Assembly: GCA_015228875.1 (NCBI GenBank) | Contig: JADGCS010000007.1 | Location: 1,494-65,493, forward strand | Length of the DNA: 64,000 nt | Reading direction: 5' to 3' | Source: Deltaproteobacteria bacterium | GTDB lineage: Bacteria > UBA10199 > JADGCS01 | In this document: one piece after another, positions 2,763-20,048 of the stretch | How the letters are laid out: each line of letters begins with the position of its first letter | Position numbering within the stretch: the stretch's first letter is position 1 | The notes under the pieces: generated by a model | The model's database searches: none | What the model was told of the DNA's origin: nothing | What the model saw: the letters and a program-made list of their open reading frames with translations, nothing else | Position numbers and translations under genes: made by a program

Positions 2763-2805
2763 AGTAACAACGAACTGCTTGCGACAGTTCAGTATTTAAA
2801 GCCTA

Positions 2806-3927: not shown

Positions 3928-3959
3928 AAATTGCCCTTGTTATAAAAAACTGATGAACA

Positions 3960-4069: not shown

Positions 4070-4852
4070 TCAGGCCACAACAAGAAAGGATGACAAGTAG
4101 TCCTCAAGGTGTTTAAGCGAGATTCCAAAATAATTCATGATGGTCGGGATGCTGACCGCAAAAAACACCAGAGCAATAACAATATTGAGTGTGATCGCCG
4201 CATTAAAATAAATATTCATCTGCGGTGCCGTGATCTGCACAATCCCCATGGTGAGGTGCGACAGCATGATAATGACAATCACCGGCAAAACGAGACGAAA
4301 AGACATAAAGAAGACAGCGGCAAAAAGTTTAACGAGTCCCGGAAGCACCTCTGTAAAGGACATAAAACCCGCCCCCACGGGGATGGCATCGTAGCTGCCA
4401 ACCAGCATCAGGATCAGGGCATGGTGAATATTGAACATAAAAAAAACAACGAGAAAAAAATTTCTAAGGACGACCGATAAAAGCGAGAGCTGCCCCAGAT
4501 TGGGATCGAAGAAAGTAGCCATCATCAGCCCCGCGTTCATCCCTGTCAGGTGCCCAACCATTGTGGCCATATCCATGACAACGCTGACCGAGAAGCCCAT
4601 GATCACGCCGACAAGAATCTCCGAGCAAACAGCGAGCATGATGTTGATCACCCCTGATGTCATGAGAGGCATGATGTCGTAGGACACAGCGGGGGCAATA
4701 AGAAACGCGATCCCCACAGGCAGAATGACCGTCACCACAATACCAATCTTGACCTCAGAAAATACGGGCAGGCTCATAAACAAGGCCGACAAACGGATAC
4801 TCATCATCACTGCAAACAGAAAATGATTGATGTTGTAATCAAGAATGCTCAT
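4070..4852 (-). CDS. fliR: Flagellar biosynthetic protein FliR
   Basis: 260-aa polytopic membrane protein between fliQ and flhB. FliR-like hydrophobic profile. Confidence 0.9.
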   Translation of the reverse strand: MSILDYNINHFLFAVMMSIRLSALFMSLPVFSEVKIGIVVTVILPVGIAFLIAPAVSYDIMPLMTSGVINIMLAVCSEILVGVIMGFSVSVVMDMATMVGHLTGMNAGLMMATFFDPNLGQLSLLSVVLRNFFLVVFFMFNIHHALILMLVGSYDAIPVGAGFMSFTEVLPGLVKLFAAVFFMSFRLVLPVIVIIMLSHLTMGIVQITAPQMNIYFNAAITLNIVIALVFFAVSIPTIMNYFGISLKHLEDYLSSFLVVA

Positions 4853-5118
4853 TGAATGTATTTATACCCCTCTCCCAAAAACATGTTGGACAGTCTGATG
4901 ATTTCACCAAGCATCCAGGGAGCAAAAAGAATGATCGACAGAAAAATGGCGATAAGTTTGGGGACAAAACTAAAAGTGTACTCATGAATCTGAAAGATGG
5001 CCTGCGCGAGCGACATAAGAACGCCGACCACAAAACTTGCCACAAGGACCGGCGCCGAAATCAACATGGCACTGTACATGGCTTTTTGGGCAATGGTCAT
5101 TACGAGATCTATCGACAT
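4849..5118 (-). CDS. fliQ: Flagellar biosynthetic protein FliQ
   Basis: The ~89-aa core MSIDLVMTIAQKAMYSAMLISAPVL… is typical FliQ. The track ORF extends to 5166, but a start at 5118 fits FliQ length and the fliP stop at 5124. Confidence 0.85.
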   Translation of the reverse strand: MSIDLVMTIAQKAMYSAMLISAPVLVASFVVGVLMSLAQAIFQIHEYTFSFVPKLIAIFLSIILFAPWMLGEIIRLSNMFLGEGYKYIQ

Positions 5119-5123
5119 AATCT

Positions 5124-5897
5124 TTACCTGAAACTCCTGATTAAAGATGTCACCACAAGATCCCACCCGTTCACCACCACAAAAAGCATCACCTTAAACG
5201 GCAGTGAAATGATCACGGGCGGCAAAACCATCATCCCCATGGATAAGAGAATCATGGCCACAATCATATCCATCACCACAAACGGGATATAGAGCATAAA
5301 ACCTATCTGAAAGGCCGTTTTTAATTCTGAGATCACAAACGCCGGGATCAAGACCATTGTGGGCAGGTCTTCAAACTTTTCGACAGGACCCGCCTTTGAA
5401 ATCTGCAGCATTAGATTCACGTCGCTGGTCCTTGTCTGCCTGAACATAAAGTTTCTTAAGGGTGCTTCAACCCTCTTAAACGCCACCTCCTCGCTAATCT
5501 GCCCGTCAAGATAAGGCTTGATGCCGTTTTTGTTCATCTCGGTAAAGACGGGGGTCATGATGGCAAAGGTCATAAAAAGCGAAAGACCGATAAGAATCTG
5601 GTTGGGAGGGGCCTGATGCAGACCAATGGCCTGCCTTAAAAAAGAAAATACGATAATGATCCTTGTAAAAGAGGTCAGACTGATAAACAGGGCCGGCAAA
5701 AAAGTAAGAAAGGTGACAATGAGAAGGATTTTGATGGGGGTGGCAAGCCCCTGAGTCTGATCAAGCGGGATATTGATGCTGATTGCATTTCCGGGAGCGG
5801 CGCTTTGGGCCTGCGCCATTGCCTGATCGGAACACAAGACCACGGCCAGAGGCACAAAAAATAATAAAAACAAAATGAGCCCTTTGTTTATCTGCAT
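5124..5897 (-). CDS. fliP: Flagellar biosynthetic protein FliP
   Basis: 257 aa with a signal peptide and FliP family motifs (LIVTFLTFLPALFISLTSFTRIIIVFSFLRQA, MGMMVLPP). Confidence 0.95.
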   Translation of the reverse strand: MQINKGLILFLLFFVPLAVVLCSDQAMAQAQSAAPGNAISINIPLDQTQGLATPIKILLIVTFLTFLPALFISLTSFTRIIIVFSFLRQAIGLHQAPPNQILIGLSLFMTFAIMTPVFTEMNKNGIKPYLDGQISEEVAFKRVEAPLRNFMFRQTRTSDVNLMLQISKAGPVEKFEDLPTMVLIPAFVISELKTAFQIGFMLYIPFVVMDMIVAMILLSMGMMVLPPVIISLPFKVMLFVVVNGWDLVVTSLIRSFR

Positions 5898-5926
5898 TTT
5901 GCTCCCTGTTTTTTTATTGATGGACT

Positions 5927-6862
5927 TTACGCAAGTTTTTTCAAGCCTTTGAGCTTTTCCCTTACCCTCATTGCGGCCGAGGCCTGTTCCCCGCTTAAAG
6001 TTGTCCCGTCTGCACCGGCGGGTTGATCTGTGCCTGAAGCTGAAGTCTTGTCTGCAACTGCCCTCGACACATATTTTTTTTCTGCAATTGAACCAAACTC
6101 TACCTCCCCGCTGCTGGCGTAGAAATCGATATCAGCCAGAAGACTGATGTTGGACTCGGTGGCACCCACCAGATATTTTTTTCCCAAGGCATCCACAATG
6201 AGTACCCTTGATTTGGGACTGATCATTTGTTGAGCGATAATTTTGAGTTCGGCACCTTTACCACCCATAAGAAGTCCGCCAGATTTTTTCTGCAGCCATT
6301 TCCATAACAGGGCAAGCAGAACAACAACGACACCAAGCGCCAGTGTGGTGAACATCATTTTCATGAACATGGGGTTAAAGCTGCTCTTGGGCACTTCGCC
6401 GAGCACCACAGTGTTTAAGGGCATCTGCGGTTTTTCTCCGAGTTTGACGCCGTTTTTTAAGTCCTCCTTGACGATAAAATCTGTTTTTTCAGGAAAATCG
6501 TTTTTGACCATTGAATTAAACACCGCGTCTTCTTTGGAGGGTTCTTGTGCCGCTTCGTCGTGGGAGCCTTCGATAGCAGAATCTGCACTTTCTTCGTCAT
6601 CGACAGGTTTTTCTGTATCTGTCCCGGCCGCTTCGACAGGTTTTTCTGCGGACTCGTCTGCTGTGGCCCGTGTGTCTTTATTTACAATCTTGGTCTTGGT
6701 CTGTATGGCCCTGGCAACGGTCATGACCGGTTGTGACAAAGAATCCTGTGTGACAGCCGCGTGCGCAGAAGATGCTGCGGCGAAAACACGGGTTCCGGTA
6801 AAAACCAGAAGAAAAGCCACACAAAAAAACACTGCCAAAACACCTGTCTTTGCTTTTGTCAT
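5927..6862 (-). CDS. fliO: FliO/FliZ-like flagellar protein with a long acidic N-terminal extension
   Basis: The C-terminal ~120 aa have one TM helix plus a FliO-like segment (LKIIAQQMISPKSRVLIVDALGKKYLVGATESNISLL). Position between fliN and fliP is as in fla operons. Confidence 0.6.
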   Translation of the reverse strand: MTKAKTGVLAVFFCVAFLLVFTGTRVFAAASSAHAAVTQDSLSQPVMTVARAIQTKTKIVNKDTRATADESAEKPVEAAGTDTEKPVDDEESADSAIEGSHDEAAQEPSKEDAVFNSMVKNDFPEKTDFIVKEDLKNGVKLGEKPQMPLNTVVLGEVPKSSFNPMFMKMMFTTLALGVVVVLLALLWKWLQKKSGGLLMGGKGAELKIIAQQMISPKSRVLIVDALGKKYLVGATESNISLLADIDFYASSGEVEFGSIAEKKYVSRAVADKTSASGTDQPAGADGTTLSGEQASAAMRVREKLKGLKKLA

Positions 6863-6944
6863 AATTTTTTTCTCCCCTTTTTGCCGCCCTCTTTGACCGG
6901 CAGACCACCCCCTAAAATGATGGGGTTAAAATTTCCCGTATGAA

Positions 6945-7313
6945 TTATTCTGGCAACACCGGGGCGGAAACCACCTCTACCACCTTTAGCCCAAGACGAT
7001 CATGCATCATGACAACCTCACCCCTTGCCACTATTTTTCCGTTAACCATTAAATCAAAAGGCTCCGAGGCCTTTTTGCCAATATCGATTACAGAACCGGG
7101 ACCACAGCTTAAGAGTTCTTTAATGCTGAGCTTGACACTCCCTAAAAGCACGTCAACCCTTACCGGCAGCTCCTGCAAATATGCGGGAATAACAGGATTA
7201 CCGCCGGTTTTTTTTGCTGCGTCTGCCCCTTGCAGGGCGGGAATGGCGGGCCCATTCTGAACAGATTGTTCCGTGTTGTCTGCCTTGGTTTGTCCGCTGT
7301 TTTCCTCGGCCAT
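6945..7313 (-). CDS. fliN: Flagellar motor switch protein FliN
   Basis: 122 aa. SpoA/FliN C-terminal domain (VRVDVLLGSVKLSIKELLSCGPGSVIDIGKKASEPFDLMVNGKIVARGEVV). Confidence 0.9.
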   Translation of the reverse strand: MAEENSGQTKADNTEQSVQNGPAIPALQGADAAKKTGGNPVIPAYLQELPVRVDVLLGSVKLSIKELLSCGPGSVIDIGKKASEPFDLMVNGKIVARGEVVMMHDRLGLKVVEVVSAPVLPE

Positions 7314-7340
7314 AAAAGCTCCTCTTTTTAATACATTTTT

Positions 7341-8288
7341 TTAATACATTAATTCTTCAACACGCACGGCGAAGTTGCCATCTACAACACCGATGGTCCC
7401 TTTAACAACGGGCTTGTCGTACTGGTACACTGTGACCTGCGGGCTTGTCTTGTCCCAGGAAAAAACCTCACCGGCCTTGAGATTAAGAAAGCGGTCAAAA
7501 GGGATGCTGATCTGACCCAACGAGACATTAAGGTCCAGATCTGACGAATAAAATGCGTTGGTCACCGCCGCTTGCCAGAGCGGGTCATCCTGGCGGCCCG
7601 CAACGTGGGTCCTTTCGGCCGCCTTTTCTTCGAGATAACTGGCAAATGTCAGGGGAATCGCCAACGAAAATTTAAAGCTGTCCTTTTCTTTTTCGGTCAC
7701 CAACTCAACCACCAGATGTTTTGTGTAAAGCTCTTTGTCCTGGTCTTCAATGGCAAATTCTGTGTTGACCAGCTTGAGATCCAGTTTGCCAAGATAGGCA
7801 AAGGATCTGGTGATATGCAGACAGATTTTTTCCATGATCTGTTTTAAAAAATATTGTTCAATCTCTGTGAGGATCTCATTTTCTTTATGGCTCTCCGCAT
7901 TTTCTCCGCCCAGATAATCGTTGAGGAGAAAGTAAAAGGTCTCAATGCTCATGTAGACCAAAAAGGATTCTTTTATGAGCTCTGTTGTGAGTTGAGAACA
8001 AAAACAATTTTCCCGGAATTGGTATTCAGCAAGGTTTTCGACCTGCTCTTTTTCTCTTTGAATGGCACAGTCTTCGAAATAATTTAGTTTCCAGTCTTTT
8101 TCGATGGAGTCTGTTAGTTTTTCCAGCCCCTTTTCAAACACCGCAAGATCAAGCGTTTTTTTCTTTTTTTGCTCGAAATCAAACCGTTTGAAATGACCCT
8201 TAAAGACACGGCTTGCGGCGCTGATGTCCATCGCCCCGGTCTCCCGAAGAATATCATCAAGAACATTCTGTGGTAATAAGTCTTTCAT
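7341..8288 (-). CDS. fliM: Flagellar motor switch protein FliM
   Basis: 315 aa. FliM middle domain plus a C-terminal FliN-like SpoA domain (KAGEVFSWDKTS…VVDGNFAVRVEEL). Sits between fliL and fliN. Confidence 0.85.
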   Translation of the reverse strand: MKDLLPQNVLDDILRETGAMDISAASRVFKGHFKRFDFEQKKKKTLDLAVFEKGLEKLTDSIEKDWKLNYFEDCAIQREKEQVENLAEYQFRENCFCSQLTTELIKESFLVYMSIETFYFLLNDYLGGENAESHKENEILTEIEQYFLKQIMEKICLHITRSFAYLGKLDLKLVNTEFAIEDQDKELYTKHLVVELVTEKEKDSFKFSLAIPLTFASYLEEKAAERTHVAGRQDDPLWQAAVTNAFYSSDLDLNVSLGQISIPFDRFLNLKAGEVFSWDKTSPQVTVYQYDKPVVKGTIGVVDGNFAVRVEELMY

Positions 8289-8314
8289 ATGATTCTGCCA
8301 GCAATTTTTTCCCG

Positions 8315-8422
8315 CAAGTTACTAACTTGACTTTGATGCCCCGAAGGAAATCCCCTTGGGGGACGCGGTTGAATTACTCCATTTTGCGAGGAAAGCACCC
8401 GCGCTCTGTCGACTTTGATTCC
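8315..8422 (+). mobile_element. MITE copy 2 (long variant) in the fliM-fliL intergenic region
   Basis: CAAGTTACTAACTTGACTTTGATGCCCCGAAGGAAATCCCCTTGGGGGACGCGGTTGAAT…GCACCCGCGCTCTGTCGACTTTGATTCC. Confidence 0.8.
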
Positions 8423-8477
8423 TATACATCGAGTTACAGGTCAAACCACTGAAGCGGACAGCGTAAAGCGTCCCTCA

Positions 8478-9041
8478 TCATTGAATCGTGAACTCCGTAA
8501 AATAAATACTGAGCACCTTGCCCTTGCCCAGAATCTTGTTGACCGTTTTGACTAAATTTTCCTTAAGAAGATTTTGTGATTGATTGTCCAGGAGCTCGCG
8601 TAGTGTAAAATCGCTCAACACAAAGATCATCGCATCCCTGAGTTGTGGATTTCTGACCGCGATTTCTTCTTTAATGCTCTCGCTCGCAAGTTCGAGCGAC
8701 AACACGACTTTAAGATAATGAACCTTTTCACGGTCAAAGATGCTCACAATAAAGGGATCGTAATTGTGAAAGATTCCGGAATGCCCCCCTTCGAGCATCT
8801 CCTGTGTTGCCACGGATGCCTCTTGCGCACCCGCTTGCTGGGCCGCATCTGCCCCTGCCTCTTCGGGCAAAGGCCCCTGCTTTGGGCTGATAACAAAGGC
8901 AAAGACCAGACCGACCACTGCCGCTGTGACTGCCGAAGTGATGACAGGGATAAGCAGGGCCTTGATCTTGGATTCTTTTTTTTCTTCTTCTTCGCCTTCT
9001 TCTGCTGCAGCCGCACCTTTTTCTGGTTCTTTTTCTGCCAT
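8478..9041 (-). CDS. fliL: Flagellar basal body-associated protein FliL
   Basis: 187 aa. Acidic N-terminus, a single TM helix, and a FliL C-terminal domain (…VLSDFTLRELLD…KVLSIYFTEFTIQ). Confidence 0.85.
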   Translation of the reverse strand: MAEKEPEKGAAAAEEGEEEEKKESKIKALLIPVITSAVTAAVVGLVFAFVISPKQGPLPEEAGADAAQQAGAQEASVATQEMLEGGHSGIFHNYDPFIVSIFDREKVHYLKVVLSLELASESIKEEIAVRNPQLRDAMIFVLSDFTLRELLDNQSQNLLKENLVKTVNKILGKGKVLSIYFTEFTIQ

Positions 9042-9137
9042 AACAACTCCTTTTATTTACCCTTTGGTTTCTCCCTTACCATGTCAGAGTCAAAATTTCA
9101 GCAAAAACTGTCAAAATTTACACCTTTTGCCCTAAAG

Positions 9138-9170
9138 AAAAAAAGCGCCTTGTCGAGTGGCGCTTTTTAT
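9138..9170. terminator. Bidirectional Rho-independent terminator between flgE and fliL
   Basis: AAAAAAA-AGCGCC-ttgtcgagt-GGCGCT-TTTTT: a 6-bp GC stem flanked by an A-run and a T-run. Confidence 0.6.
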
Positions 9171-9197
9171 ATTGATGTTTATTTATCGGCACTCAAG

Positions 9198-10472
9198 TTA
9201 ACCTCCCAGGCTCACCAATGACCCCAGCAGTTCATTGACCACAGAAATTGTCCTAGTGTTTGCCTGAAAACCACGCTGGATAATCACCAGTTTAATGAGT
9301 TCGTTCGCAAGGTCCACGTTTGACTGCTCCAGTGTCGATGACAGAACAGCCCCCCGCCCCCCTGATTCAGCGATTGCCAGGAGCGGCACACCCGAAGTCA
9401 GCGAGTCATCCCATGCGTTGTGTCCCATCCTCTGCAGGGCCTGATTGTCGGCAAACAGTGCAATACCCACCTGCCCCAGTGTCAGACGCTGTCCGTTCGT
9501 GTATGTCCCGGAGATCGTCCCGTCTGTCCCTATCTCGATGGTGTTGAGGATGCCCGACGCGTACCCATCCTGTGTGATCGACGTGAGCGAAGAATCGCCG
9601 CCAAACTGTGTGATCCCGTCTAGTCCCGTGCTGGATGCAGACAAGACCGTGCCAAAATCAAATGTAATACTTTGATCCTGTGTTGCACCAACAAAGTCAA
9701 AATCGTTGGTGAGTTCGGTCGTACTGATCAAGGCACCGTTGGGATTAAACAGCAGGGTCCCGCTTGCCTCTATCTGCGCCGTTGTCGCGCCCGTGATATC
9801 ATCGGAATCACACACCGCGTACCATTCCCATTGTTCGTTCACACCAGCGGCGCCGTTGTTCCTGTAATAGAGGGTTAAAAGATGGCTCGAACCCAGAGAA
9901 TCATACACCGTCACGCCTGCCGAGTAGTTTGAGGTGTTGATCGGATCCGCGGCGTCAAAGGCCGCCGGCGTTGCTGCTGTGGCCGTCAGGTTGGCCGCAA
10001 CAGTCACGTTGTCGGTGCTGTTGGGGGCGTTGGGTTCATAGGAAAACTGAAAATCAACCTGTTCGGAGGTCACCGAATTGTTTTCATCGACGCCAAACCC
10101 CCTGAGCCTGTGTCCCTGAAGATTGACCACGTACCCGTCTTCATCAACAATAAACTGACCGGCCCGCGTGTAAATATACCTCTGGTTCACAAAATCGTTG
10201 ACCTCAAAAAAACCCTGGCCATCAATGGCAAGGTCCGTCACGCTTGAGGTGGCCTCAAACCCGCCCTGGGAAAACTGCTGCGTGGTCCCCGCAACACGGG
10301 ACCCCATGCCGGCAATCTGGCTCGAACCGGCTACAATGTCCGAAAACTCGGCACGGGAAGATTTGTACCCCGTCGTGTTGACGTTTGAAATATTGTCCCC
10401 GATCAGTGCCGTGACAGCGCCGTTGGCATTGATTCCGTTTACGCCTGAGTAGAGTGCTTGGTAAATAGTCAT
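9198..10472 (-). CDS. flgE: Flagellar hook protein FlgE
   Basis: 424 aa. N-terminal flagellar rod/hook motif (NISNVNTTGYKSSRAEFSDIVAG) and C-terminal hook/rod motif (DLANELIKLVIIQRGFQANTRTI). Confidence 0.9.
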   Translation of the reverse strand: MTIYQALYSGVNGINANGAVTALIGDNISNVNTTGYKSSRAEFSDIVAGSSQIAGMGSRVAGTTQQFSQGGFEATSSVTDLAIDGQGFFEVNDFVNQRYIYTRAGQFIVDEDGYVVNLQGHRLRGFGVDENNSVTSEQVDFQFSYEPNAPNSTDNVTVAANLTATAATPAAFDAADPINTSNYSAGVTVYDSLGSSHLLTLYYRNNGAAGVNEQWEWYAVCDSDDITGATTAQIEASGTLLFNPNGALISTTELTNDFDFVGATQDQSITFDFGTVLSASSTGLDGITQFGGDSSLTSITQDGYASGILNTIEIGTDGTISGTYTNGQRLTLGQVGIALFADNQALQRMGHNAWDDSLTSGVPLLAIAESGGRGAVLSSTLEQSNVDLANELIKLVIIQRGFQANTRTISVVNELLGSLVSLGG

Positions 10473-10523
10473 GGTAATAACCTCCTTGTCTGTCTATTAA
10501 GAAAAGCCTTGTCCCTGTTCACA

Positions 10524-11192
10524 TTAAAAAATCCTTTGAATGTCGGTGATACCAAAGTCGTCCTTGCCAATAGCAAAGACGGGGACACCACCCTCGAGCC
10601 GGATACTGTTGATCGTCCCCACCGAGTAGGTATTCACCGGAATGGCGTCTCCCACATCATTGTAGGCCTCCACTGTGTACGCATAGTAGCCGTCCTCCAG
10701 CGGTTTGTTGTCCATCCCAAGACCGCCAAAGGGGATCTGTTGCATACCCGCCGATTCAATCTGCGGTGAAAATTCGGATACAAGATTGTTAAACTTGTCA
10801 AAGACCCTGATGGTGGCCGTCTCGGGCACATGCGCAATCTCAAAATTAAGGCTGCCCTTGTTTTCCCCTTTGAGCTCAAATGTGTTGCCCTTCGCCAGTG
10901 CGCTTTTGCCAACCATAGAGGAGTACGTCGCGATTTGCGACCCCGCTGTGATGTTAACGAGACCCTCGACATTTTTGTTAAGGTCAAACAACTGCTCCAA
11001 CTGTCCCAGCGACATCATCTGCTGCGTCATCTGATCTGTGTCGGTTGGAGACAGGGGATCCTGATTTTTAAGCTGCGCCAGAAGAAGGGTCAAAAACTGC
11101 ATCTTGGTCTCTTCGATATCATCGCCTCCCGTGGTCCCCTGATACATACCAGTCTTTGATGTTGAAGAAGTTGATGAAATGTCATTGAGCAT
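10524..11192 (-). CDS. flgD: Flagellar hook assembly (capping) protein FlgD
   Basis: FlgD N-terminal motif (FLTLLLAQLKNQDPLSPTD). The ATG at 11192 is preferred over the track start at 11219 because it has an AAGGAG RBS 6 nt upstream. Confidence 0.85.
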   Translation of the reverse strand: MLNDISSTSSTSKTGMYQGTTGGDDIEETKMQFLTLLLAQLKNQDPLSPTDTDQMTQQMMSLGQLEQLFDLNKNVEGLVNITAGSQIATYSSMVGKSALAKGNTFELKGENKGSLNFEIAHVPETATIRVFDKFNNLVSEFSPQIESAGMQQIPFGGLGMDNKPLEDGYYAYTVEAYNDVGDAIPVNTYSVGTINSIRLEGGVPVFAIGKDDFGITDIQRIF

Positions 11193-11208
11193 AATGTCTC
11201 CTTCTTTA

Positions 11209-11291
11209 CAAGTTACCAACTTGACTTTGACGCGGTTGAATGCCTCTATTTTGCGAGGAATGCACCCGCGCTCTGTCAGCTTTGAAATTCC
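11209..11291 (+). mobile_element. MITE copy 3 (short ~83-bp variant) between flgD and fliK, overlapping the flgD RBS region
   Basis: CAAGTTACCAACTTGACTTTGACGCGGTTGAATGCC…GCACCCGCGCTCTGTCAGCTTTGAAATTCC. Confidence 0.8.
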
Positions 11292-11303
11292 TATACATTA
11301 AAA

Positions 11304-12827
11304 CTACGCAGTCACATCCAGATTTTTGGTGGAGCCTCTGTTTCTTTTTATTTTTTCACCCACCATCTCTCTTAATTTTTCAATCTCCTGCCTTTTGGTT
11401 TCACTGTGATCCTGATACATCCCCCTGTCCGTCTCATGCCGCTGCCTTGCAAAGTCCGAGATCACCTGTTGCTGATCTGTCTTAAAAAAATCCCTATCCT
11501 GAACCACTTCAAAGCTTGTGACCTCAAGTTTTTCGACCATCACAATTTCCTTGAGATACCCTGCGTGGCTCTCAAGCATGGACTTTGTGGCCTTTTCTTC
11601 CGTGATAATCTGAATCTTGACCTTATCGTTGTGCACACTGAACCTGATGTTGACCGCCCCAAGTTCTGGTGGATAAATCTGGATCCTGGTGATGCCTGAT
11701 TTTCCCGCCTGCGACATCTGCAGCATGATCTCCCCTATTTTTTCCCGCAGCGGGGCAAGATAGGACATGCCGACAACAGTCTGGTTGTTATTGTCTGCCA
11801 GACCCGTCAGCATGAACTGGGGAGGCACGTCGGAACCTGGCTGACCGGACTTGGACACCTCAAACATATTCTGCAAACCTTTGGCCTTGAAGTCGATGAT
11901 GCCTTCGGGGTCAAGTGTGTCCGCCGACATCAACACAAAATCACCCTTCTGATCTTTGGGGGCTTTAAGCCTGTTTAAATCAATGGCCACCACATCCATG
12001 ACCACATCTGGTTCCTGATCCAGACCAACGTAGGCGCCAACTGCACGCTGCGCCTCCAGAGATTTTGAGAGTGCTGAATTTTGTCCAGGTTGTGATTTTA
12101 AAAAATTGTCAGTCACATCTGACTGGAACATGTCTTTTAATGGACCCTTGATATCGACGGGTGCTGCCTGTTGCGTCTCTTCTACCATCATGTTTGATAT
12201 TTCAGCGGTCACCTCACTTGCGGACAGAATCTCCATCTGGTCCTGCGGGGCACCCAGCATCTCTCTGGGCACCTCCGAATGAATATCGACAGGCTCTTTT
12301 TGCGCCATCACAAGCTCCATCTGCTGCCTTAATGTTTCAACATCTATTTTTTTAAGAAGTTCCTCGGAGATGTTTCTGGCAGGCTTTACACTCTCGACGA
12401 CAATCTGCGTGAGAGGTCCCGCAGCATTGATCTGCTGCTCTGCCGGCATATTGTTTTTGAGCTGTTCAAAACTTAAATTGAGTTGATGTGCCAGTTCGGC
12501 AACATCAATCTTGTAGGTGTCTATCTCTGTCTGCTCCTGATCATTAAGCCCCTTTGTTCCCTCGTGTGATGCATCGTCCTTGTTGATTTTGTCGTCAGTA
12601 TCGGCCTCGCGGGTTTTGGCCTTTTTGTTCATGGCCATTTCTTCGGCCCCGGTCTCGTCTTTGTTGGATTCATTTTTTTCAGACGTCCCCTGCTTCGGGG
12701 AGGCCATATCAACAATACCACCAAAGGCATCGGCGTTTTCTGTGGGAGTCACGGAGTTGGCATTTGAGACGCTTTGTATGGCCGACATAACACTGGAACT
12801 GGCGCTGATTTCTTTGAGTCGCGACAT
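11304..12827 (-). CDS. fliK: Flagellar hook-length control protein FliK
   Basis: 507 aa. Low-complexity acidic N-terminal and central regions, and a FliK C-terminal domain (ITRIQIYPPELGAVNIRFSVHNDKVKIQIITEE). Position between ylxF-like and flgD as in B. subtilis. Confidence 0.8.
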   Translation of the reverse strand: MSRLKEISASSSVMSAIQSVSNANSVTPTENADAFGGIVDMASPKQGTSEKNESNKDETGAEEMAMNKKAKTREADTDDKINKDDASHEGTKGLNDQEQTEIDTYKIDVAELAHQLNLSFEQLKNNMPAEQQINAAGPLTQIVVESVKPARNISEELLKKIDVETLRQQMELVMAQKEPVDIHSEVPREMLGAPQDQMEILSASEVTAEISNMMVEETQQAAPVDIKGPLKDMFQSDVTDNFLKSQPGQNSALSKSLEAQRAVGAYVGLDQEPDVVMDVVAIDLNRLKAPKDQKGDFVLMSADTLDPEGIIDFKAKGLQNMFEVSKSGQPGSDVPPQFMLTGLADNNNQTVVGMSYLAPLREKIGEIMLQMSQAGKSGITRIQIYPPELGAVNIRFSVHNDKVKIQIITEEKATKSMLESHAGYLKEIVMVEKLEVTSFEVVQDRDFFKTDQQQVISDFARQRHETDRGMYQDHSETKRQEIEKLREMVGEKIKRNRGSTKNLDVTA

Positions 12828-12900
12828 TGTTTATCTCCTCCACCCCGCATCAGAGGCTGTCTAAATCGACAGCCTCATCACACGAGGTGCCTTGCGATCT

Positions 12901-13677
12901 TTAGAACCCCCTGACAATTCTGCTGGACAGGGCCGCTGACAGTTTGGGGTCCATAGCGCTTAATATCTTCCCCAGTTTTTTGGCCTGCATGCCTCTTAAA
13001 ATGGCAAGCGTCATATCAAGATCAAGATTGGTGAGCCTTGCCGCAGCCTCTTCCGGGCTGAAGCTTTCATACAGCCTGACCATCTTGTCGAGCTGTGGGT
13101 TGTCCTTGAGATTGGAAGGATCATACTGCACAATCTTTTTGATCCTTTCTTCGATCTCCAGATAATTTTTGGTCAGGCCCTCCATCCTCTCTTTCATCTC
13201 GGCAAGCAGTTTTTCTTCCTGTTTGAGGCTGCGCTCCTTCTCTTTAAGTCTTTCCGACAAGTCGTCCAGATAAACCGTAAATTCCTTGCAAGTCTCGGGT
13301 GTCTTGTAAATCACCTTTACATTTTCTTCTTCGCTATATTCGCTCACGTCCTTGTCGACAACCTCTGTGGATTTAATATTGGTCTTTGCCCCAATCTGTT
13401 TTGGTTTTTCATCCTCCGCCGTCTTTACCGCGGTCTGCTGCTTTTTTGTGGCTGCTGCGGGTGTCTTTTTTGTCTCAGCTGTTTTTTTCTCGTCCTTTGC
13501 TTCTTCCTCTTTTTCTTTCCCTTCTTTTTTTTCTTCTTTGGATGCTTTCATTTCCTCCTGCTTGATCCCCTCAACCTCTTCGCCTTTTTTTGCGGCCGCT
13601 CTGGTATTAAGAACCCCAAAGATAAGAACCGAAACAAAGATCCCGACAACCATCCCTGTCATAAAATTTCTTTTCAT
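12901..13677 (-). CDS. YlxF/MotE/FlbB-like flagellar protein with a MgtE_N-like C-terminal domain
   Basis: 258 aa. Signal/TM segment, Lys/Glu-rich coiled coil, and a C-terminal MgtE-N-like segment (LTNLDLDMTLAILRGMQAKKLGKILSAMDPKLSAAL). Position between fliJ and fliK matches B. subtilis ylxF. Confidence 0.5.
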   Translation of the reverse strand: MKRNFMTGMVVGIFVSVLIFGVLNTRAAAKKGEEVEGIKQEEMKASKEEKKEGKEKEEEAKDEKKTAETKKTPAAATKKQQTAVKTAEDEKPKQIGAKTNIKSTEVVDKDVSEYSEEENVKVIYKTPETCKEFTVYLDDLSERLKEKERSLKQEEKLLAEMKERMEGLTKNYLEIEERIKKIVQYDPSNLKDNPQLDKMVRLYESFSPEEAAARLTNLDLDMTLAILRGMQAKKLGKILSAMDPKLSAALSSRIVRGF

Positions 13678-13735
13678 AAGCCACCCTCTTTAAATGCGCG
13701 CTGACGCATTTGTTTCCCTTGCCGCTTCACAACAT

Positions 13736-14182
13736 TTACATGGCCTGCCTGGCAAAACTTAACACAGCCATTTCATCACTCAGTTTTTCTTCCTGCCTGT
13801 TAAATTCTGCCCTGTATTCATTAAGCCTCTTGTCGCGCAGGTGCTCCAGCATTTTGACCTCGCGTTTCACCTCGGTGTATTGCCGGATCACATCCTCTTT
13901 TTTTCGCTGATACACCTCAAGACTGATCATAAGCTGTTCACGGTAGCGGTACAGTCCCTGAATATGATAATCGATAATCGAAAGCTGCACCGCATTAAAT
14001 CCTCTCCGCATCACCGTATTATAATAACTGGACCAGTCGCTGACTTTTTCTTCTGTGTCCTTTATTTTGTTTTCCTGTTCCGCAACCAGACGCTGTATTC
14101 CCATCAGTTCGTTGCGTATCTCTTTTTCAACGGACTGTTTGATACGTAACATCCCCTGCAATTTGTATTTAAACTTTTTCAT
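13736..14182 (-). CDS. fliJ: Flagellar export chaperone FliJ
   Basis: 148-aa all-coiled-coil protein between fliI and ylxF-like. The family is poorly conserved, so the call rests on context. Confidence 0.7.
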   Translation of the reverse strand: MKKFKYKLQGMLRIKQSVEKEIRNELMGIQRLVAEQENKIKDTEEKVSDWSSYYNTVMRRGFNAVQLSIIDYHIQGLYRYREQLMISLEVYQRKKEDVIRQYTEVKREVKMLEHLRDKRLNEYRAEFNRQEEKLSDEMAVLSFARQAM

Positions 14183-14204
14183 TTAACACACCTTCAAGTT
14201 ACTA

Positions 14205-14277
14205 ACTTGACTCTGACGCGGTTGAGTTCCTTCGCTATGCGAGGCAGGCATCCGCGCCCTGTCAACTTTAAAATTCC
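14205..14277 (+). mobile_element. MITE copy 4 (short) between fliJ and fliI
   Basis: CAAGTTACTAACTTGACTCTGACGCGGTTGAGTTCC…CATCCGCGCCCTGTCAACTTTAAAATTCC. Confidence 0.75.
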
Positions 14278-14289
14278 CGGACATTACAC

Positions 14290-15618
14290 TTACTGTGCAA
14301 GTTGTCTCAACCAGGTCTGTGTCTCGGCAAAACCTGATTTTTCGGTGATATCCTGTCTTAAAAATTGTTTAATGTGTCGTATTTTTTTTACGGCCTCATC
14401 TAGCTCGCTGTTTTTTCCCGGGATGTACGCGCCAATGTTGATGTAGTCTTCCATCTCGGTATAGTTTGCAAGCAGCGCCCTGACCTTTCTGGCGTTCGTC
14501 TGATGGCCTTCGTCGGTCACATCGATCATCACACGAGACAGTGAATTAAGAACATCAATGGATGGGTAGTGTCCCTCGTTTGACAATTTTCTGCTTAAAA
14601 CAATGTGACCGTCGGTGATGGATCTCACGCAGTCGGCAATGGGGTCGTTGATATCGTCACCCTCCGTGAGAATGGTATAAAATCCCGTGATGCTGCCCTG
14701 ATGCGCGGTTGTCCCGGCCCTTTCCAGAAGCTTGGGCAGCGTTGTAAAAGTGGATGGCGTGTACCCTCTGGATGTGGGAGGCTCTCCTACAGAAAGTCCC
14801 ACCTCGCGTGTCGCCATTGAAAAACGTGTCAGGCTGTCCATGAGCAGAAGGACCTTTGATCCCCTGTCGCGAAAATATTCTGCAATGGCTGTGGCCACAA
14901 AGGCACATCTCATACGGATGAGCGGCGGTGTATCACTTGTAGCCACAACAACAACAGAGCGTCTCAACCCCTCTTCGCCCAGATCCTTTTCGATAAAATC
15001 CCTGACCTCCCTCGCCCTTTCACCCAGCAGTGCAATCACGTTGATATCGCTCTCTGTGTAGCGGGCCATCATGCCCAGGAGCGTTGATTTTCCCACACCG
15101 GAACCCGACATAATCGCGACCCTTTGTCCTTCCGCACAGGTCATCAGGCTGTCAATCGCCCGAACCCCGAGACTCACGGGCGTCTGCACACGCTTTCTGC
15201 CCATGGCCGCTATGGGGCTCTGGTACAGGGGATACTCGCTCTCGTATTGTATTTTTCCCGCATTATCCATTTCGCTGCCGTCGGGATTGATGACCCTGCC
15301 CAATAATTTTTTTCCAACCTTAACACGGGCCCTGTTTTGTACCACCTTGACATGACTGCCTATCCTGACACCGGCAACATCCCCAATCATCATCATCTGA
15401 ACATGGTTTTCTTTAAGACCAATCACCTCGGCCTGCCGTTTTTTATTATCATCTTCTGTAAACACATCACAGATAGCACCAATGGGCGCATCGGGGAGCG
15501 ATGCCTCGACCACAAGCCCAAGCACCCGGCTGACCTTGCCCAGTGTCTCGAAACGCCGTGCACCCCTTATTTTATCAAGGTAAGGGGTACTTTCAAATTT
15601 TTGTCTCTGTGTTGTCAT
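14290..15618 (-). CDS. fliI: Flagellum-specific ATP synthase FliI
   Basis: 442 aa. Walker A (GSGVGKSTLLGMMAR) and an F1/T3SS ATPase fold. Confidence 0.95.
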   Translation of the reverse strand: MTTQRQKFESTPYLDKIRGARRFETLGKVSRVLGLVVEASLPDAPIGAICDVFTEDDNKKRQAEVIGLKENHVQMMMIGDVAGVRIGSHVKVVQNRARVKVGKKLLGRVINPDGSEMDNAGKIQYESEYPLYQSPIAAMGRKRVQTPVSLGVRAIDSLMTCAEGQRVAIMSGSGVGKSTLLGMMARYTESDINVIALLGERAREVRDFIEKDLGEEGLRRSVVVVATSDTPPLIRMRCAFVATAIAEYFRDRGSKVLLLMDSLTRFSMATREVGLSVGEPPTSRGYTPSTFTTLPKLLERAGTTAHQGSITGFYTILTEGDDINDPIADCVRSITDGHIVLSRKLSNEGHYPSIDVLNSLSRVMIDVTDEGHQTNARKVRALLANYTEMEDYINIGAYIPGKNSELDEAVKKIRHIKQFLRQDITEKSGFAETQTWLRQLAQ

Positions 15619-15650
15619 ATTCTGTCATCAAATAATTTTACAAGTTACCA

Positions 15651-15675
15651 ACCTGACCTTAATGCCTGTACATCA
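15651..15675 (+). mobile_element. MITE fragment (5' terminus only) between fliI and fliH
   Basis: CAAGTTACCAACCTGACCTTAATGCC matches the element terminus. The rest is missing. Confidence 0.45.
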
Positions 15676-15677
15676 AT

Positions 15678-16367
15678 TCATGTGGGCCCCGTCTCCCCGG
15701 CCGGTGCAAAGAGAATGTGTTCCTTCATGTTGTTGATCACTGTGATCATTGAGGCATCCAGTCTGTACTGATCTGTATCCAGAAAAATCTCTCCCTGTGC
15801 CAGGCGGCTGTCGCCGATCCATTTTATCCTTGAATTCTCCATGAGGCGCTTGACATTGTCATCCTGTGACGCCTTTATAGAAGCGAGGTCTTCCTGCGCG
15901 ATCCTGATCTCAACGGGCGCTGTTGTTCTGACAGACTCAAGTGCCAGGCAGATCTGTTTTGTCAAAAGAACCGGATCGGCCTTGATCGCTGTCAGGACCA
16001 TCTTTTCGGCAAGGGCAAGGGCAAAGGTTGCCAGTTCATCGGCATTTGACTCCCAATGGCTCTTTTTTATTTTTTCAAACTCCTCCATAATTTTTCCAAT
16101 GCATTCTGCCTGTTCTGACAGTCTGGCTGTTGTGTCCTCTGTCTCCTTAAGTTTTGCTGCCACGATCTCTTGTTGTCTCTGGATCTCCCCTTTTAACTCA
16201 TTAATCTTTTTTTCTTTAGCCCTGATGATTTCCTCATAGTTTTCTTTTGAGCTGAGATCCTTAAAGACCGACCAGTCGTCAAAAGAAACCCTGGAGCCGT
16301 TTACAAGCTGGTCCTTGCCAAAGCCGTCCAGTTCCTTAAAGAATCCCTGTCCTAAAGTTTCCTGCAT
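15678..16367 (-). CDS. fliH: Flagellar assembly protein FliH
   Basis: 229 aa. Coiled-coil N-terminus and a FliH C-terminal domain. Sits between fliG and fliI. Confidence 0.7.
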   Translation of the reverse strand: MQETLGQGFFKELDGFGKDQLVNGSRVSFDDWSVFKDLSSKENYEEIIRAKEKKINELKGEIQRQQEIVAAKLKETEDTTARLSEQAECIGKIMEEFEKIKKSHWESNADELATFALALAEKMVLTAIKADPVLLTKQICLALESVRTTAPVEIRIAQEDLASIKASQDDNVKRLMENSRIKWIGDSRLAQGEIFLDTDQYRLDASMITVINNMKEHILFAPAGETGPT

Positions 16368-16394
16368 CGTTTTATCTCCATCTGTTGCACCACA

Positions 16395-17447
16395 TTAATC
16401 ATCCGCCAAGGGCGCCAATGCCATTTGTCCTTCCATAATCAATTTCTTGGCCTCTTCCAAAATCGCATCAACAGCGGCCTCAACATCTTCGGCCTTTTGC
16501 TCGCGCATGACTTCCATGTCTTCCCGCATCAGTGTGGCCGCGCGCGTAGACATATTTGAAAAAAACAGGTCCTGTATTTCTGTGGGCTGGCCCTTGAGGG
16601 CCAGGGACAACGAGGCCATCTCGACGCTGCGGAGCAGTGCCCGAACACCGTGGCCATCGGCCCTTTTTAAATCTTCCATTGTAAAAAACTTTTTTCTCAA
16701 AACAGCCGCCACCTTGGGATTTTTTTTCTCAATCTGCGCAATCACTTCTTCTGCCTTTGTCCAGTCAAGCCCTTTGACATATCTTAAGACATGATCACTG
16801 CCCTCTACTTCAACGGCCTTTTTCTTTCCTGCAGCGCCGGTGCTCAGATCACCCGATGCCAGTTTGTTTCTGTAGTTATCTGCAAGAAAGTTGATCAGAT
16901 CTTCCGGAACCTTTGAGAGAACAGACATCCTGTACAGACAGTCCGCCTGCGGTTTCTTTTCCATTTTTTTGATAACCAGACTCGAAAGCATCGGTTTAAT
17001 CAGTGACAAAATCACGGCGATCGTCTGAGGGTGTTCATCCTGTATCAGGGAGTAGATCTGATCGGGAGAGAGTTCATCGAACATGCTTTCGAGGGGATTC
17101 TGTTTGGACCCCTTGCCACCCTTGATGTTCTTGATCTTGAGAATGCGGCCCTTGCGTTCTTCGGGCAGAGACTTGCTGACAAGTTTATTGTACAGTTTTT
17201 CTCCGGACATCTGCCCGGCTTCAATGCCAAGGTCGTTGTGAAACTCGGTTAACACCTCATTCATGCTTGCGATGGGAATTTCTCCCATCCCCAAAAGTAT
17301 GTTTCCGAGTTTTTTGATATCCTCATCTGACATGTAGTCAAACAAACGGGCCACGCCTTTTTCTTCCAGCAAAAGAAAAATCAGCGCCGCTTTTTGTGCA
17401 CGGGAAATCGTATTTACGTTTGCATTGCCTTTGGTTTTCTCTGCCAT
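16395..17447 (-). CDS. fliG: Flagellar motor switch protein FliG
   Basis: 350 aa. FliG N-terminal, middle and C-terminal domains (…MEDLKRADGHGVRALLRSVEMASLSLALKG…). Confidence 0.9.
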   Translation of the reverse strand: MAEKTKGNANVNTISRAQKAALIFLLLEEKGVARLFDYMSDEDIKKLGNILLGMGEIPIASMNEVLTEFHNDLGIEAGQMSGEKLYNKLVSKSLPEERKGRILKIKNIKGGKGSKQNPLESMFDELSPDQIYSLIQDEHPQTIAVILSLIKPMLSSLVIKKMEKKPQADCLYRMSVLSKVPEDLINFLADNYRNKLASGDLSTGAAGKKKAVEVEGSDHVLRYVKGLDWTKAEEVIAQIEKKNPKVAAVLRKKFFTMEDLKRADGHGVRALLRSVEMASLSLALKGQPTEIQDLFFSNMSTRAATLMREDMEVMREQKAEDVEAAVDAILEEAKKLIMEGQMALAPLADD

Positions 17448-17479
17448 TTTTTCTCCACGCTATTTCTTAACTTGTTTTC

Positions 17480-17535
17480 TCCGCTGTGTATTCACATTCA
17501 CTGCACACACAAGTTACTCAATATGTACCCTCTCA
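17480..17535 (+). repeat. Possible degenerate MITE remnant in the fliG-fliF intergenic region
   Basis: CTTAACTTG…CACACAAGTTACTCAATATG reproduces only the CAAGTTAC/GTAACTTG terminal palindrome of the element. Confidence 0.3.
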
Positions 17536-19068
17536 TTCAAGCCACTTTTTAAGAACCTCAACCATGTCCCCTGGATTGGTAGCTGCTTTTTTCTCCAGAG
17601 CCATTTTCGCCTCATCAGTTGTCAGCATTTTTTGCCCTCCCTCGGCCAAGGCAGGGAATCCGGCACCCATACCTGCGACAGCCAGCGTGTCACGCCGCCG
17701 CACATTCCAAGCGCCGATCACAGGGCGAATCACAAAGAGGATGATGAGGATTGCAATCATCGCGATCACCACATTTACAATGATGCCGAGATAAAACGAA
17801 TTACTGCTCACATCGACAAGAGACGAAGACTCCTGTTGTGCAAAAAGCGTTTCGGGATTCTGAAAGGCAAGATTCATGACCCTGATCTGATCCCCACGTG
17901 CTTGATTAAAACCAACCGCGCTTTTAATAATATCTTCAAAGCTTTGTATTTCTTCCGGCGTTCGTGCTGCGTACGCTGTTGTGCCGTCTTCATTTTTCTG
18001 ATACACACCATCGATGATCACAGCCACCGACAGGTTTTTGAGATTTCCGGTGGGGTGATTGATGTGCTGAATCTGTTTGCTCACCTCGTAGGTCATGGTC
18101 TCGGTCTGCACATCCTTTTGTTTGCCGGCACCAGCTGCCTGTTTTTCTTCGCCAGCGGTTTCCTCCGACTCCTTGTTTCTGGTCCGTGTTTCGTTTCTCA
18201 CTGCAATGGAGTCAGGGTCATATTTTTCCTCTGTTGTTTCCTTTGATGTAAAATCCAGATCCGCTGTCACCTTGACCCTGATCTTGCCAAACCCGACAAT
18301 CGGTTCGAGAAGCGACCTGACCTTTTGTTCATACGCAGATTCGAGATCACTTTTTTTCTGCATGCCACCGGCACCGCCCATCGCATCGCCATCGGTGTTG
18401 TCGGCCGTCAAGAGGGAGCCATCGGTTGTCACCACAGTCACCTTGGACGCATCCAGATTGGATACGCTGGTGCTGACAAGGTGCACAATGCTTCTTACCG
18501 TTTCTTCGCGAATCTTTTCACCAGCCTCCAGTTTTAAAATAATTGAGGCCGTCGCGCCTTCTTTGTCCTTTAAAAAAACAGATTCCTGGGGAACGACCAG
18601 ATGAACACGCGAGTCTTCGATCTCCATGAACTCGTTGATGGTCCTCTGCAGCTCTCCCTGCAAGGCCCTCTGGTAATTGAGGCGTTGTTCAAAATCGGTC
18701 ATGCCAAACGAGTTTTTGTCAAAGATCTCAAATCCAACACCGCCGTATTTGGGCAGACCATCCTTTGACAACTTGATGCGTGTCTCCAGAACCTTGCTCC
18801 CGGGAACCAGAATGGCCTTGGAGTCGGACTGGATCTGATATTCCACATTGTATTTGTCGAGGGCTGTGGCAATGGCCGTGATGTCCTCTGTTTCAAGATT
18901 ACTGAACAACACCTGATACTCGGATTTTCCCGACAACTGCCCCAGAAAAACAAGAATCGCCACACTCACACCCACAGTGATGAGGATCGAGAGTTTTTTG
19001 AGAAACGGCATCTCAACAATCAGTGTTTTGATCTGCTGAAAAGTTTCATTGAGCTTTATGTCCGCCAT
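17533..19068 (-). CDS. fliF: Flagellar MS-ring protein FliF
   Basis: 511 aa. N-terminal TM, YscJ/FliF periplasmic domains, and a C-terminal TM. Confidence 0.9.
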   Translation of the reverse strand: MADIKLNETFQQIKTLIVEMPFLKKLSILITVGVSVAILVFLGQLSGKSEYQVLFSNLETEDITAIATALDKYNVEYQIQSDSKAILVPGSKVLETRIKLSKDGLPKYGGVGFEIFDKNSFGMTDFEQRLNYQRALQGELQRTINEFMEIEDSRVHLVVPQESVFLKDKEGATASIILKLEAGEKIREETVRSIVHLVSTSVSNLDASKVTVVTTDGSLLTADNTDGDAMGGAGGMQKKSDLESAYEQKVRSLLEPIVGFGKIRVKVTADLDFTSKETTEEKYDPDSIAVRNETRTRNKESEETAGEEKQAAGAGKQKDVQTETMTYEVSKQIQHINHPTGNLKNLSVAVIIDGVYQKNEDGTTAYAARTPEEIQSFEDIIKSAVGFNQARGDQIRVMNLAFQNPETLFAQQESSSLVDVSSNSFYLGIIVNVVIAMIAILIILFVIRPVIGAWNVRRRDTLAVAGMGAGFPALAEGGQKMLTTDEAKMALEKKAATNPGDMVEVLKKWLE

Positions 19069-19112
19069 TCTGTCTCTCCTTTCAAGCTACGAACTTGACT
19101 GTCACATCCGAT

Positions 19113-19436
19113 TTACACCGACATACGCATGACTTCCTTGTAGGCCTCGACAACCTTGTTTTTGATCGTCGCCATCAACCGTAAGCTTAAATCGGCATGT
19201 TCTCCCTTTAAGACCAGCTCGTGCAGGTTAATGCTCTCACCTTTTGCAAACTGGTCCGATATAGCCTCGTACTCCTTAACTGTGGCATCCACTTTTTTAA
19301 CACCATTGACCATCAGATCGGTAAAACTTTCTGGCTTGTCCTCTTTGTTTAAGCCCACCTTGCCGGGAAACTCACCCGAACTGACGTTTCCAATCCGCGG
19401 CATCTGCTGGGGCTGTATGACTTTTCCTGTTGTCAT
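19113..19436 (-). CDS. fliE: Flagellar hook-basal body complex protein FliE
   Basis: FliE C-terminal motif (HELVLKGEHADLSLRLMATIKNKVVEAYKEVMRM). A start at MTTGKV (19436) with a GAGGAA RBS is preferred over the longer track ORF. Confidence 0.8.
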   Translation of the reverse strand: MTTGKVIQPQQMPRIGNVSSGEFPGKVGLNKEDKPESFTDLMVNGVKKVDATVKEYEAISDQFAKGESINLHELVLKGEHADLSLRLMATIKNKVVEAYKEVMRMSV

Positions 19437-19484
19437 ATATAATTCCTCACCCGCATAACGCGACAAATACTACGCGCGGGGTGC

Positions 19485-19565
19485 ATTGCGATCGGACATG
19501 AATAATTTCATGTCTGGCGCTATGCGCCAATTGCGATCGGATATGAATGATTTCATGTCCGGCGC
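19485..19565. repeat. Two tandem 36-bp palindrome-containing repeats (45-bp period) in the flgC-fliE intergenic region
   Basis: ATTGCGATCGGACATGAATAATTTCATGTCTGGCGC / ATTGCGATCGGATATGAATGATTTCATGTCCGGCGC. Each holds an 8-9-bp inverted repeat GACATGAA-N4-TTCATGTC. The palindrome GGCGCTATGCGCC lies between them. Confidence 0.7.
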
Positions 19566-19567
19566 GT

Positions 19568-19587
19568 AAAAAAAACCTTCCAAGGTT
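19568..19587 (-). terminator. Weak hairpin + U8 tract immediately after the flgC stop (possible attenuator)
   Basis: The minus-strand RNA reads AACCUUGGAAGGUU followed by UUUUUUUU. The stem is short and AT-rich. Confidence 0.3.
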
Positions 19588-20022
19588 TTATACCTTGGCC
19601 ATATCCAGAATCTTTAACGCCATTGTCTTTGTTGTGTTGAATGCCGTCACATTGGCCTCGTAGGCGCGGGAGGCCATAAGCATATCCGTCATCTCTTGCA
19701 CCAGATTGACATTGGGCAATTCAACAAAGCCTTTTTTGTCGGCATCGGGGTGACCCGGATCATACACCCTCTGAAAGGGTGTTGGATCCTTGTAAATCTC
19801 GGCCAGCTTGACCTCGCTGAGTTGCACATCGATCTGATCCTTTAAGGCGGTTTCAAAATTGAGCGGCACGGCTTCGAAGACGGGCGAGATTCTCTGATAA
19901 GGCTTGCCATCCGGCCCGCGTGTTGTCTGGGCGTTAGCGAGGTTGGCGCTGGTGATGTCCATCTGCATCTTTTGCGCCTTAAGCCCTGATGCCGTGACTG
20001 CTAATGAAGGCAATAATGACAT
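19588..20022 (-). CDS. flgC: Flagellar basal-body rod protein FlgC
   Basis: 144 aa. Rod N-terminal motif (ITSANLANAQTT) and C-terminal rod motif (MTDMLMASRAYEANV). Confidence 0.9.
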   Translation of the reverse strand: MSLLPSLAVTASGLKAQKMQMDITSANLANAQTTRGPDGKPYQRISPVFEAVPLNFETALKDQIDVQLSEVKLAEIYKDPTPFQRVYDPGHPDADKKGFVELPNVNLVQEMTDMLMASRAYEANVTAFNTTKTMALKILDMAKV

Positions 20023-20048
20023 GGTTCTCTCCCTTGTGCGTACAAAGT

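Follow-up and report, generated by a model that had tools for sequence, protein, structure and literature searches.

Probable mobile palindromic repeats at gene junctions of a deltaproteobacterial flagellar operon and in frame within two protein genes

Several gene junctions in a deltaproteobacterial flagellar operon are occupied by copies of a short structured repeat. This raises the question of whether the repeat regulates the operon or is a mobile passenger within it. The DNA analyzed here (the window, 64 kb) is part of a 65.6-kb contig from the metagenome-assembled genome (MAG) 'Deltaproteobacteria bacterium', with locus tags beginning HQM16_, and its FliI is identical to MBF0104151.1. The flagellar cluster occupies positions 660-20423 on the minus strand in the order flgB?-flgC-fliE-fliF-fliG-fliH-fliI-fliJ-orf-fliK-flgD-flgE-fliL-fliM-fliN-fliO-fliP-fliQ-fliR-flhB-flhA. 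All flagellar open reading frames (ORFs) of the window are full length and intact. A first-pass annotation had placed copies of a MITE (miniature inverted-repeat transposable element) at five junctions of this cluster and proposed that they had been domesticated for flagellar gene-dosage control. The evidence presented below suggests that the repeats are probably a previously undescribed, lineage-specific family of small non-autonomous palindromic mobile elements, MITEs in the broad sense, that are carried in the operon as passengers.

Repeat finding followed by nhmmer searches with a profile hidden Markov model built from the copies identified nine full copies in the window (E 5.8e-33 to 6.5e-28; Table 1). 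4/9 are located at junctions of the flagellar operon and 5/9 elsewhere in the window. If the rest of the genome is similar, the total would run to hundreds of copies. The full copies are 70-93% identical in gapless comparisons, and both strands are represented. The unit is 90 nt (short form) or 117 nt (long form, with an extra 27-nt segment), both lengths being divisible by three. Its left end is a 15-nt palindrome, CAAGTNACNNACTTG, found at 11 loci in the window where 0.34 are expected by chance. The right terminus is TTTGAAATTCCnnnACAT, with the conserved end ...ATTCCnnnACAT, and the termini of the whole element read CAAGTTAC...ACAT. The flagellar copies were found where the first-pass annotation had put them, to within a few bases, and Pfam confirmed the names of the genes that border them. 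The copy between fliH and fliI is a mini-copy in which ~25 nt of the left end (the palindrome plus ~10 nt) is fused to the ~9-nt right terminus CCTGTACAT, the central hairpin being gone. Another probable mini-copy lies between fliE and fliF. That junction, at 44 nt, is inside the 29-48 nt range of relatives, and insertion there is not demonstrated.

If the repeats were inserted, the same junctions should be shorter in relatives that lack them. Eight relatives whose FliI is 71-79% identical provided 11 orthologous loci. Five loci span the whole cluster (L001, L002, L004, L009 and L011), while six shorter contigs (L003, L005-L008 and L010) span fliH-fliJ only. Gene order is conserved in all of them, and the repeat is absent from all 11. 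The expectation that such junctions are tight in a conserved operon held in every relative examined, including the fliH-fliJ region of the six shorter contigs. The enlargement to 60-190 bp that had been read from the window alone agrees with the measured lengths of 59-189 nt, and these differ from the -14 to 46 nt found at the same five junctions of the five long relatives (Table 1). In the closest relative (79%, L006/L007) there are 5 nt at fliH/fliI and 20 nt at fliI/fliJ. When the element is subtracted, the window junctions are reduced to 17-74 nt. The Shine-Dalgarno sequences of flgD (AAGGAG), fliJ and flhB are kept just downstream of the element. Because the relatives' junctions are tight and lack the repeat, the enlarged junctions are lineage-specific insertions.

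Two copies are found within protein genes. The copy in the gene for a 901-amino-acid protein is an exact 90-nt in-frame insertion, and a tandem paralogue, 45% identical, is gapped exactly there. An exhaustive search showed that the corresponding 32-residue block is confined to the 901-amino-acid protein among nine aligned family members; the paralogue and seven other homologues do not have it. The other, likewise exactly 90 nt and in frame, occupies codons near the start of ORF 43998-44588, between MKSCL, which has a good Shine-Dalgarno sequence upstream, and the signal-peptide-like hydrophobic stretch KHAAIVFLYFIVLFLPFLSLA. NCBI annotates the same start for this ORF (HQM16_02500). A search of 5.8 billion proteins for homologues of its product returned only the protein itself, and thus the empty site is unconfirmed by homologues in this case. 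Both in-frame copies share frame F1, giving QVT(N/H)LTLTRL...PRSVDF(E/K)IP.H. This forward frame (QVTNLTLTRL...PRSVDFEIPxH) is open in 8/9 copies. The frames inside copies are only 30-39 codons long, and none of the nine copies contains a transposase gene.

The proteins that received these copies were also characterized. The ORFs at 44979-47684 and 47962-50709 encode the tandem paralogues, of 901 and 915 amino acids, neither with a Pfam domain. Their family is rare, with 21 cluster representatives among 1.84 billion proteins, and has a conserved C-terminus with a J-domain-like 'HPD' motif (AYHPD/AWHPDR). HQM16_02500 encodes an orphan, Cys-rich, probably secreted protein of 196 amino acids.

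Demonstrable insertion is a criterion for a bacterial MITE. It is seen here in the filled site of the 901-amino-acid protein, set against the empty sites of its homologues, and in the junction comparison. The repeats are interpreted as inserted DNA because the in-frame insertions in two ORFs and the junction expansions are both clean. Lacking a transposase, the element would be moved in trans by an enzyme that is absent from the window. The family multiplied after the split from the relatives whose FliI is at most 79% identical. Copies would survive only where no gene is destroyed: in the gap that separates a stop codon from the ribosome-binding site of the following gene, or in frame where the protein tolerates an insert.

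Table 1. Copies of the repeat, the flagellar junctions that they occupy and associated mini-ORFs. E, nhmmer E value; relatives, the five long relatives; orientation is given relative to the flagellar genes.
Feature	Location	Coordinates	Strand	Length (nt)	E	Junction in window (nt)	Junction in relatives (nt)	Remarks
Long copy	fliR/flhB	3953-4069	-	117	1.2e-30	142	7 to 35	Forward
Long copy	fliL/fliM	8315-8429	+	115	6.5e-28	189	-1 to 28	2-nt deletion; reverse
Short copy	fliK/flgD	11209-11298	+	90	5.8e-33	111	17 to 46	Reverse
Short copy	fliI/fliJ	14195-14284	+	90	5e-31	107	1 to 35	Reverse
Mini-copy	fliH/fliI	15641-15673	+		0.018 (left end)	59	-14 to 22	Internally deleted; palindrome with 1 mismatch
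Probable mini-copy	fliE/fliF	19083-19107	+		0.085			CAAGCTACGAACTTGAC + TGTCACAT; palindrome with 1 mismatch; uncertain
Long copy	ssb / sigma-54 activator, divergent spacer	28858-28974	-	117	4.2e-29			Neighbours by Pfam
Short copy	S9 peptidase / DPBB lytic transglycosylase, convergent	42409-42498	+		2e-28			Neighbours by Pfam
Short copy	Within ORF 43998-44588	44013-44102	+					In frame F1, codons 6-35
Short copy	Within 901-amino-acid ORF 44979-47684	45267-45356	+					In frame F1
Copy	TPR-protein gene / SNF2 helicase gene	58620-58710	-	91	1.5e-32			1-nt insertion; neighbours by Pfam
Mini-ORF	fliK/flgD	11206-11298	-					Frame R1, 30 codons + TAA; ATG 5 nt after fliK stop, stop 13 nt before flgD ATG
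Mini-ORF	fliI/fliJ	14183-14284	-					Frame R1, 33 codons + TAA; ATG 5 nt after fliI stop, TAA abuts fliJ ATG (TAAATG)

The structure of the element was examined across the copies. Inside the ends, the arm TTGAC-TTTGA-CGCGG pairs imperfectly with CCGCG-CTCTG-TCAAC, and the hairpin tip is variable. Of the base-pair cells proposed for the nine copies, 91.7% are paired, and compensatory change is seen at 4 pairs, a level reached by 8/500 shuffles. When single copies are folded as RNA, the energies lie between -17.6 and -42.9 kcal/mol and the z-scores between -0.7 and -3.5. Conserved ends around a variable yet paired centre are the look of mobile palindromic repeats. Both mini-copies retain both termini, as would be expected if the ends are cis-acting sites. 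The extra 27-nt segment of the long form holds a 23-nt hairpin core, CCCCGAAGGAAATCCCCTTGGGG, which is found at 4023-4045, 8339-8361 and 28928-28950 and nowhere else in the window.

Two copies were seen to continue past the usual right terminus with an identical 10-nt extension, CGAGTTACAG (8430-8439 and 42499-42508). They may represent a sub-family in which the right end is longer.

The intergenic copies are not spread evenly over the non-coding DNA. 5/8 are in junctions that measure 30 nt or less once the element is subtracted, and such junctions make up 3.5% of non-coding DNA (binomial P = 2.5e-6). Spacers longer than 80 nt, ~5.6 kb in total, have one copy. The copy next to ssb is the only one in a large intergenic region. 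6/8 intergenic copies are 0-5 nt from a stop codon or overlap one. REP and ERIC elements are known to be distributed in a similar way. The left end of the fliR/flhB copy begins immediately 3' of the fliR stop TGA, and the copy downstream of the S9 peptidase gene, which occupies a 94-nt gap, likewise begins immediately 3' of the stop TGA. The copy at the TPR/SNF2 junction forms the end of the TPR gene, with its final four codons (KLLT) and its stop. Of the seven intergenic full copies, six are bordered by co-directional or convergent genes, and both orientations occur among them. The bias toward tight junctions could result from targeting to gene 3' ends or from selection against insertion in promoter regions.

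Another hypothesis is that the element itself might carry ribosomes across the insertion. Read in reverse, the element opens with an ATG and continues as an open frame. In this model, ribosomes that terminate at the upstream gene would re-initiate in this frame, melt the hairpin and stop beside the downstream start. Coupling would thereby be preserved, and coupled junctions would tolerate the copies that are arranged in this way. The stop-5 nt-ATG layouts at fliK/flgD and fliI/fliJ (mini-ORFs in Table 1) agree with the model. Also in its favor, the terminal ATG is kept in 8/9 copies, frame R1 has no internal stop in 7/9, and coupling by termination and reinitiation requires very short distances (PMC10666635). 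We infer only from their sequence that both mini-ORFs may be translated. However, only 2/4 reverse-oriented junction copies fit, and the layout may be due to chance: by a rough estimate, chance alone would put an in-phase stop within 4-5 codons of AT-rich spacer in ~20-30% of cases at each junction. At fliL/fliM the copy has a frameshift and is 48 nt away from the stop, at fliH/fliI only 4 codons are encoded by the mini-copy, and the forward-oriented fliR/flhB copy has no such frame. We therefore regard the relay as improbable. A combined proposal, in which the element is targeted to the gap between a stop and the next gene and relays ribosomes through its ATG frame when reversed, is similarly doubtful. 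If relay and targeting were both true, the element could colonize coupled operons without uncoupling them, and its hairpins would be raw material for subunit ratios.

Several observations weigh against the interpretation of the repeats as mobile elements. No copy-specific target-site duplication was found in the nine copies, a sample of limited power (k = 2-7, boundary shifts of +/-8), where only a conserved CA...CA inside the ends was seen, and a scan of window ORFs detected no transposase and no RAYT-like (Y1 transposase) domain. The inverted-repeat arms are imperfect and sub-terminal, leaving ~10 nt unpaired at the right end. The 23-nt hairpin is 100% identical in all three long copies, whose backbones are only 87-93% identical; constraint, gene conversion or a nested mini-insertion might account for this invariance. 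The tight-junction bias is not accounted for by survivorship alone. With 7-30% divergence many copies may be old, and their long retention could hint at a benefit. Further copies were sought outside the window. None was among the matches listed in exact-pattern scans of genome contigs, none was found in exact-pattern scans of metagenome and viral contigs, and blastn gave no match to plasmids. A profile of the element-encoded peptide retrieved nothing among 5.8 billion proteins. The family was thus seen in no other genome or metagenome scanned, so it offers no presence/absence polymorphism between close strains. The mobilization mechanism is not demonstrated; the family is MITE-like by behavior, with no transposon superfamily assigned.

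A further possibility is that the repeats are not mobile DNA. They might instead be sites at which a host protein binds the 15-nt palindrome, copies of a small RNA gene, or an artefact of MAG assembly. In favor of this, the left-end palindrome is the best conserved part of the element and is kept even by the mini-copies, and the searches described above found no transposase, target-site duplication or outside copy. The clean in-frame insertions in two ORFs, and the clean expansion of junctions when eight lineages are compared, are nevertheless signals of insertion rather than of conserved regulatory sites. Misassembly is further opposed by the copies themselves, which differ from one another and sit among intact collinear genes. 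A small RNA gene is opposed by the lack of any promoter or terminator flanking the copies and of any Rfam match. We consider this group of explanations highly improbable. Identity with a known RNA family was rejected on the basis of Rfam 15, which gave no match in the window at gathering thresholds and none on any element at E <= 1 across 3900-15700. No tRNA-derived elements were found.

Even if the repeats are mobile in origin, the copies at flagellar junctions could have been co-opted to set stoichiometric steps along the operon, whether as attenuators within it, as sites of RNA processing or as promoters. Their hairpins, -18 to -43 kcal/mol, lie within a presumed single long mRNA, and they part genes that overlap or abut in relatives. 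They have been retained long enough to diverge by 7-30%. There are also precedents, as Correia elements are cleaved by RNase III and ERIC elements alter the decay of host mRNA through RNase E (PMC10969869). Against co-option, copies are present at 5/21 flagellar junctions and 3/32 others, and this enrichment is not significant (p = 0.24). More than half of the full copies are scattered among unrelated genes, two of them inside coding sequences, and all relatives lack the element. Within the operon the orientation is mixed, with three full copies and the mini-copies reverse and one full copy forward relative to transcription. In a consensus scan, no copy contained a sigma-70-type promoter. The fliR/flhB copy has one weak terminator-like site of 5 bp, at 4005-4019, the other flagellar copies have none, and no U-tract follows the hairpin in either orientation of any copy. 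The hairpin has been lost altogether from two junction copies. A role as attenuators or promoters is not borne out by these results, and co-option is in our opinion unlikely. A sigma-54-like GG-N10-GC motif on the reverse strand of the copy at 11209 was also considered and was rejected by eye; its spacing is not conserved in the copy at 14195.

The junction comparison therefore upholds one half of the first-pass proposal, the insertion of a dispersed structured repeat into a conserved operon. The other half, domestication for gene-dosage control, is unsupported by the sequence features examined here. We favor the view that the flagellar copies would be passengers in a polycistronic mRNA, and that any effects on expression would be incidental rather than those of an evolved dosage device. 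Decay of the copies, evident in two hairpin-less junction stubs of 25-33 nt and in the 2-nt deletion of the fliL/fliM copy, fits tolerated passengers and not tuned attenuators. Incidental effects on mRNA stability or translational coupling are possible. Coupling between stop and start codons may have been lost at fliH/fliI, fliI/fliJ and fliL/fliM, and hairpins of the strength given above might slow exonucleases or attract RNases.

The family was compared with known bacterial repeats. Its closest behavioral matches are the RPEs (palindromic elements) of Rickettsia and the ERIC elements of enterobacteria. RPEs are inserted in frame in protein genes besides intergenic sites, adding a peptide while the ORF is kept, and the first RPEs were ~150 bp (PMC10969869). 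The window family is likewise made of dispersed short palindromic repeats, with 2/9 copies in frame and in the same open frame. It differs in that the host is unrelated, the unit is shorter and most copies are intergenic; the likeness proposed is one of behavior, and no relationship in sequence is expected. ERIC elements occupy transcribed gaps, both inside operons and downstream of them, and may face either way. Like these elements, also called IRU, the repeats described here are ~100-nt imperfect palindromes that occur in either orientation, with size variants generated by internal insertions and deletions. Unlike them, they have in-frame intragenic copies. No ERIC-type similarity was detected when a long copy was compared by blastn (word size 11) with 5,426 complete E. 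coli genomes.

Correia elements (NEMIS) of Neisseria are often co-transcribed with neighboring genes and can affect expression by way of RNase III cleavage, IHF sites or promoters (PMC10969869). They are abundant MITEs of ~100-150 nt, and the window family resembles them in having long and short forms, distinguished by an internal segment. Its arms are sub-terminal and imperfect, no duplication was found, and promoter-like hexamers are lacking, whereas the terminal inverted repeats of Correia elements are 26 bp long and their target duplication is TA. REP, BIME and REPIN elements, mobilized by RAYT transposases, are extragenic hairpin repeats concentrated at gene 3' ends and in operons. They are rarely found in promoters and can stabilize upstream mRNA segments, which alters the relative expression of genes in an operon. 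The tight-junction bias of the window family matches that of REP, BIME and REPIN sequences. A REP unit is a GC-rich palindrome of 20-40 nt that has a conserved tetranucleotide at its 5' side, and REPs are not known for insertion in frame within coding sequences. The unit described here, by contrast, is 90-117 nt and not a REP doublet, and the window ORFs scanned have no Y1 transposase domain of the kind expected in a REPIN-RAYT system.

A conserved, tightly packed operon has thus taken up at least five insertions of this family, and one of a second family described below, with every gene left intact. This shows the tolerance of a translationally coupled type III secretion operon for added spacers and RNA structure. 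In-frame 'coding palindromes', best known from Rickettsia, are extended to an uncultured deltaproteobacterial lineage. The preference for junctions of 30 nt or less poses the question of targeting versus survivorship. For annotation, caution is advised, as repeats are the source of enlarged junctions in this genome and of odd peptide segments at N-termini or inside proteins. No new regulatory principle is revealed.

A second, unrelated repeat family was found in the course of this work. It has copies at 19437-19600 and 43364-43503 on opposite strands (nhmmer E 4.6e-16 between copies) and contains a 45-nt tandem duplication. The first copy enlarges the flgC/fliE junction to 151 nt, compared with 1-39 nt in relatives, and the family is absent from the relatives' loci. 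On the gene strand, a terminator-like hairpin, A4-CCUUGGAAGG-U8, lies directly 3' of the flgC stop. This hairpin is a better candidate for an attenuator than the 90/117-nt family.

Three other features of the window were recorded. The junction between fliJ and the following orf (13678-13735) is 58 nt here, compared with a 4-nt overlap in five relatives and 36 nt in the closest. Neither repeat family has a copy in it, but it contains a palindrome, AAATGCG-TCAGCG-CGCATTT. On the strand opposite flgE, positions 9679-9728 (+) gave a sub-threshold match to the Rfam S15 leader (26.1 bits compared with a gathering threshold of 39.5, E 0.011), which is probably due to chance. Finally, a single inverted repeat at 34328-34508, with 66-nt arms that are 79% complementary and a 49-nt spacer, lies between two minus-strand ORFs and may be a single copy of another MITE-like element.

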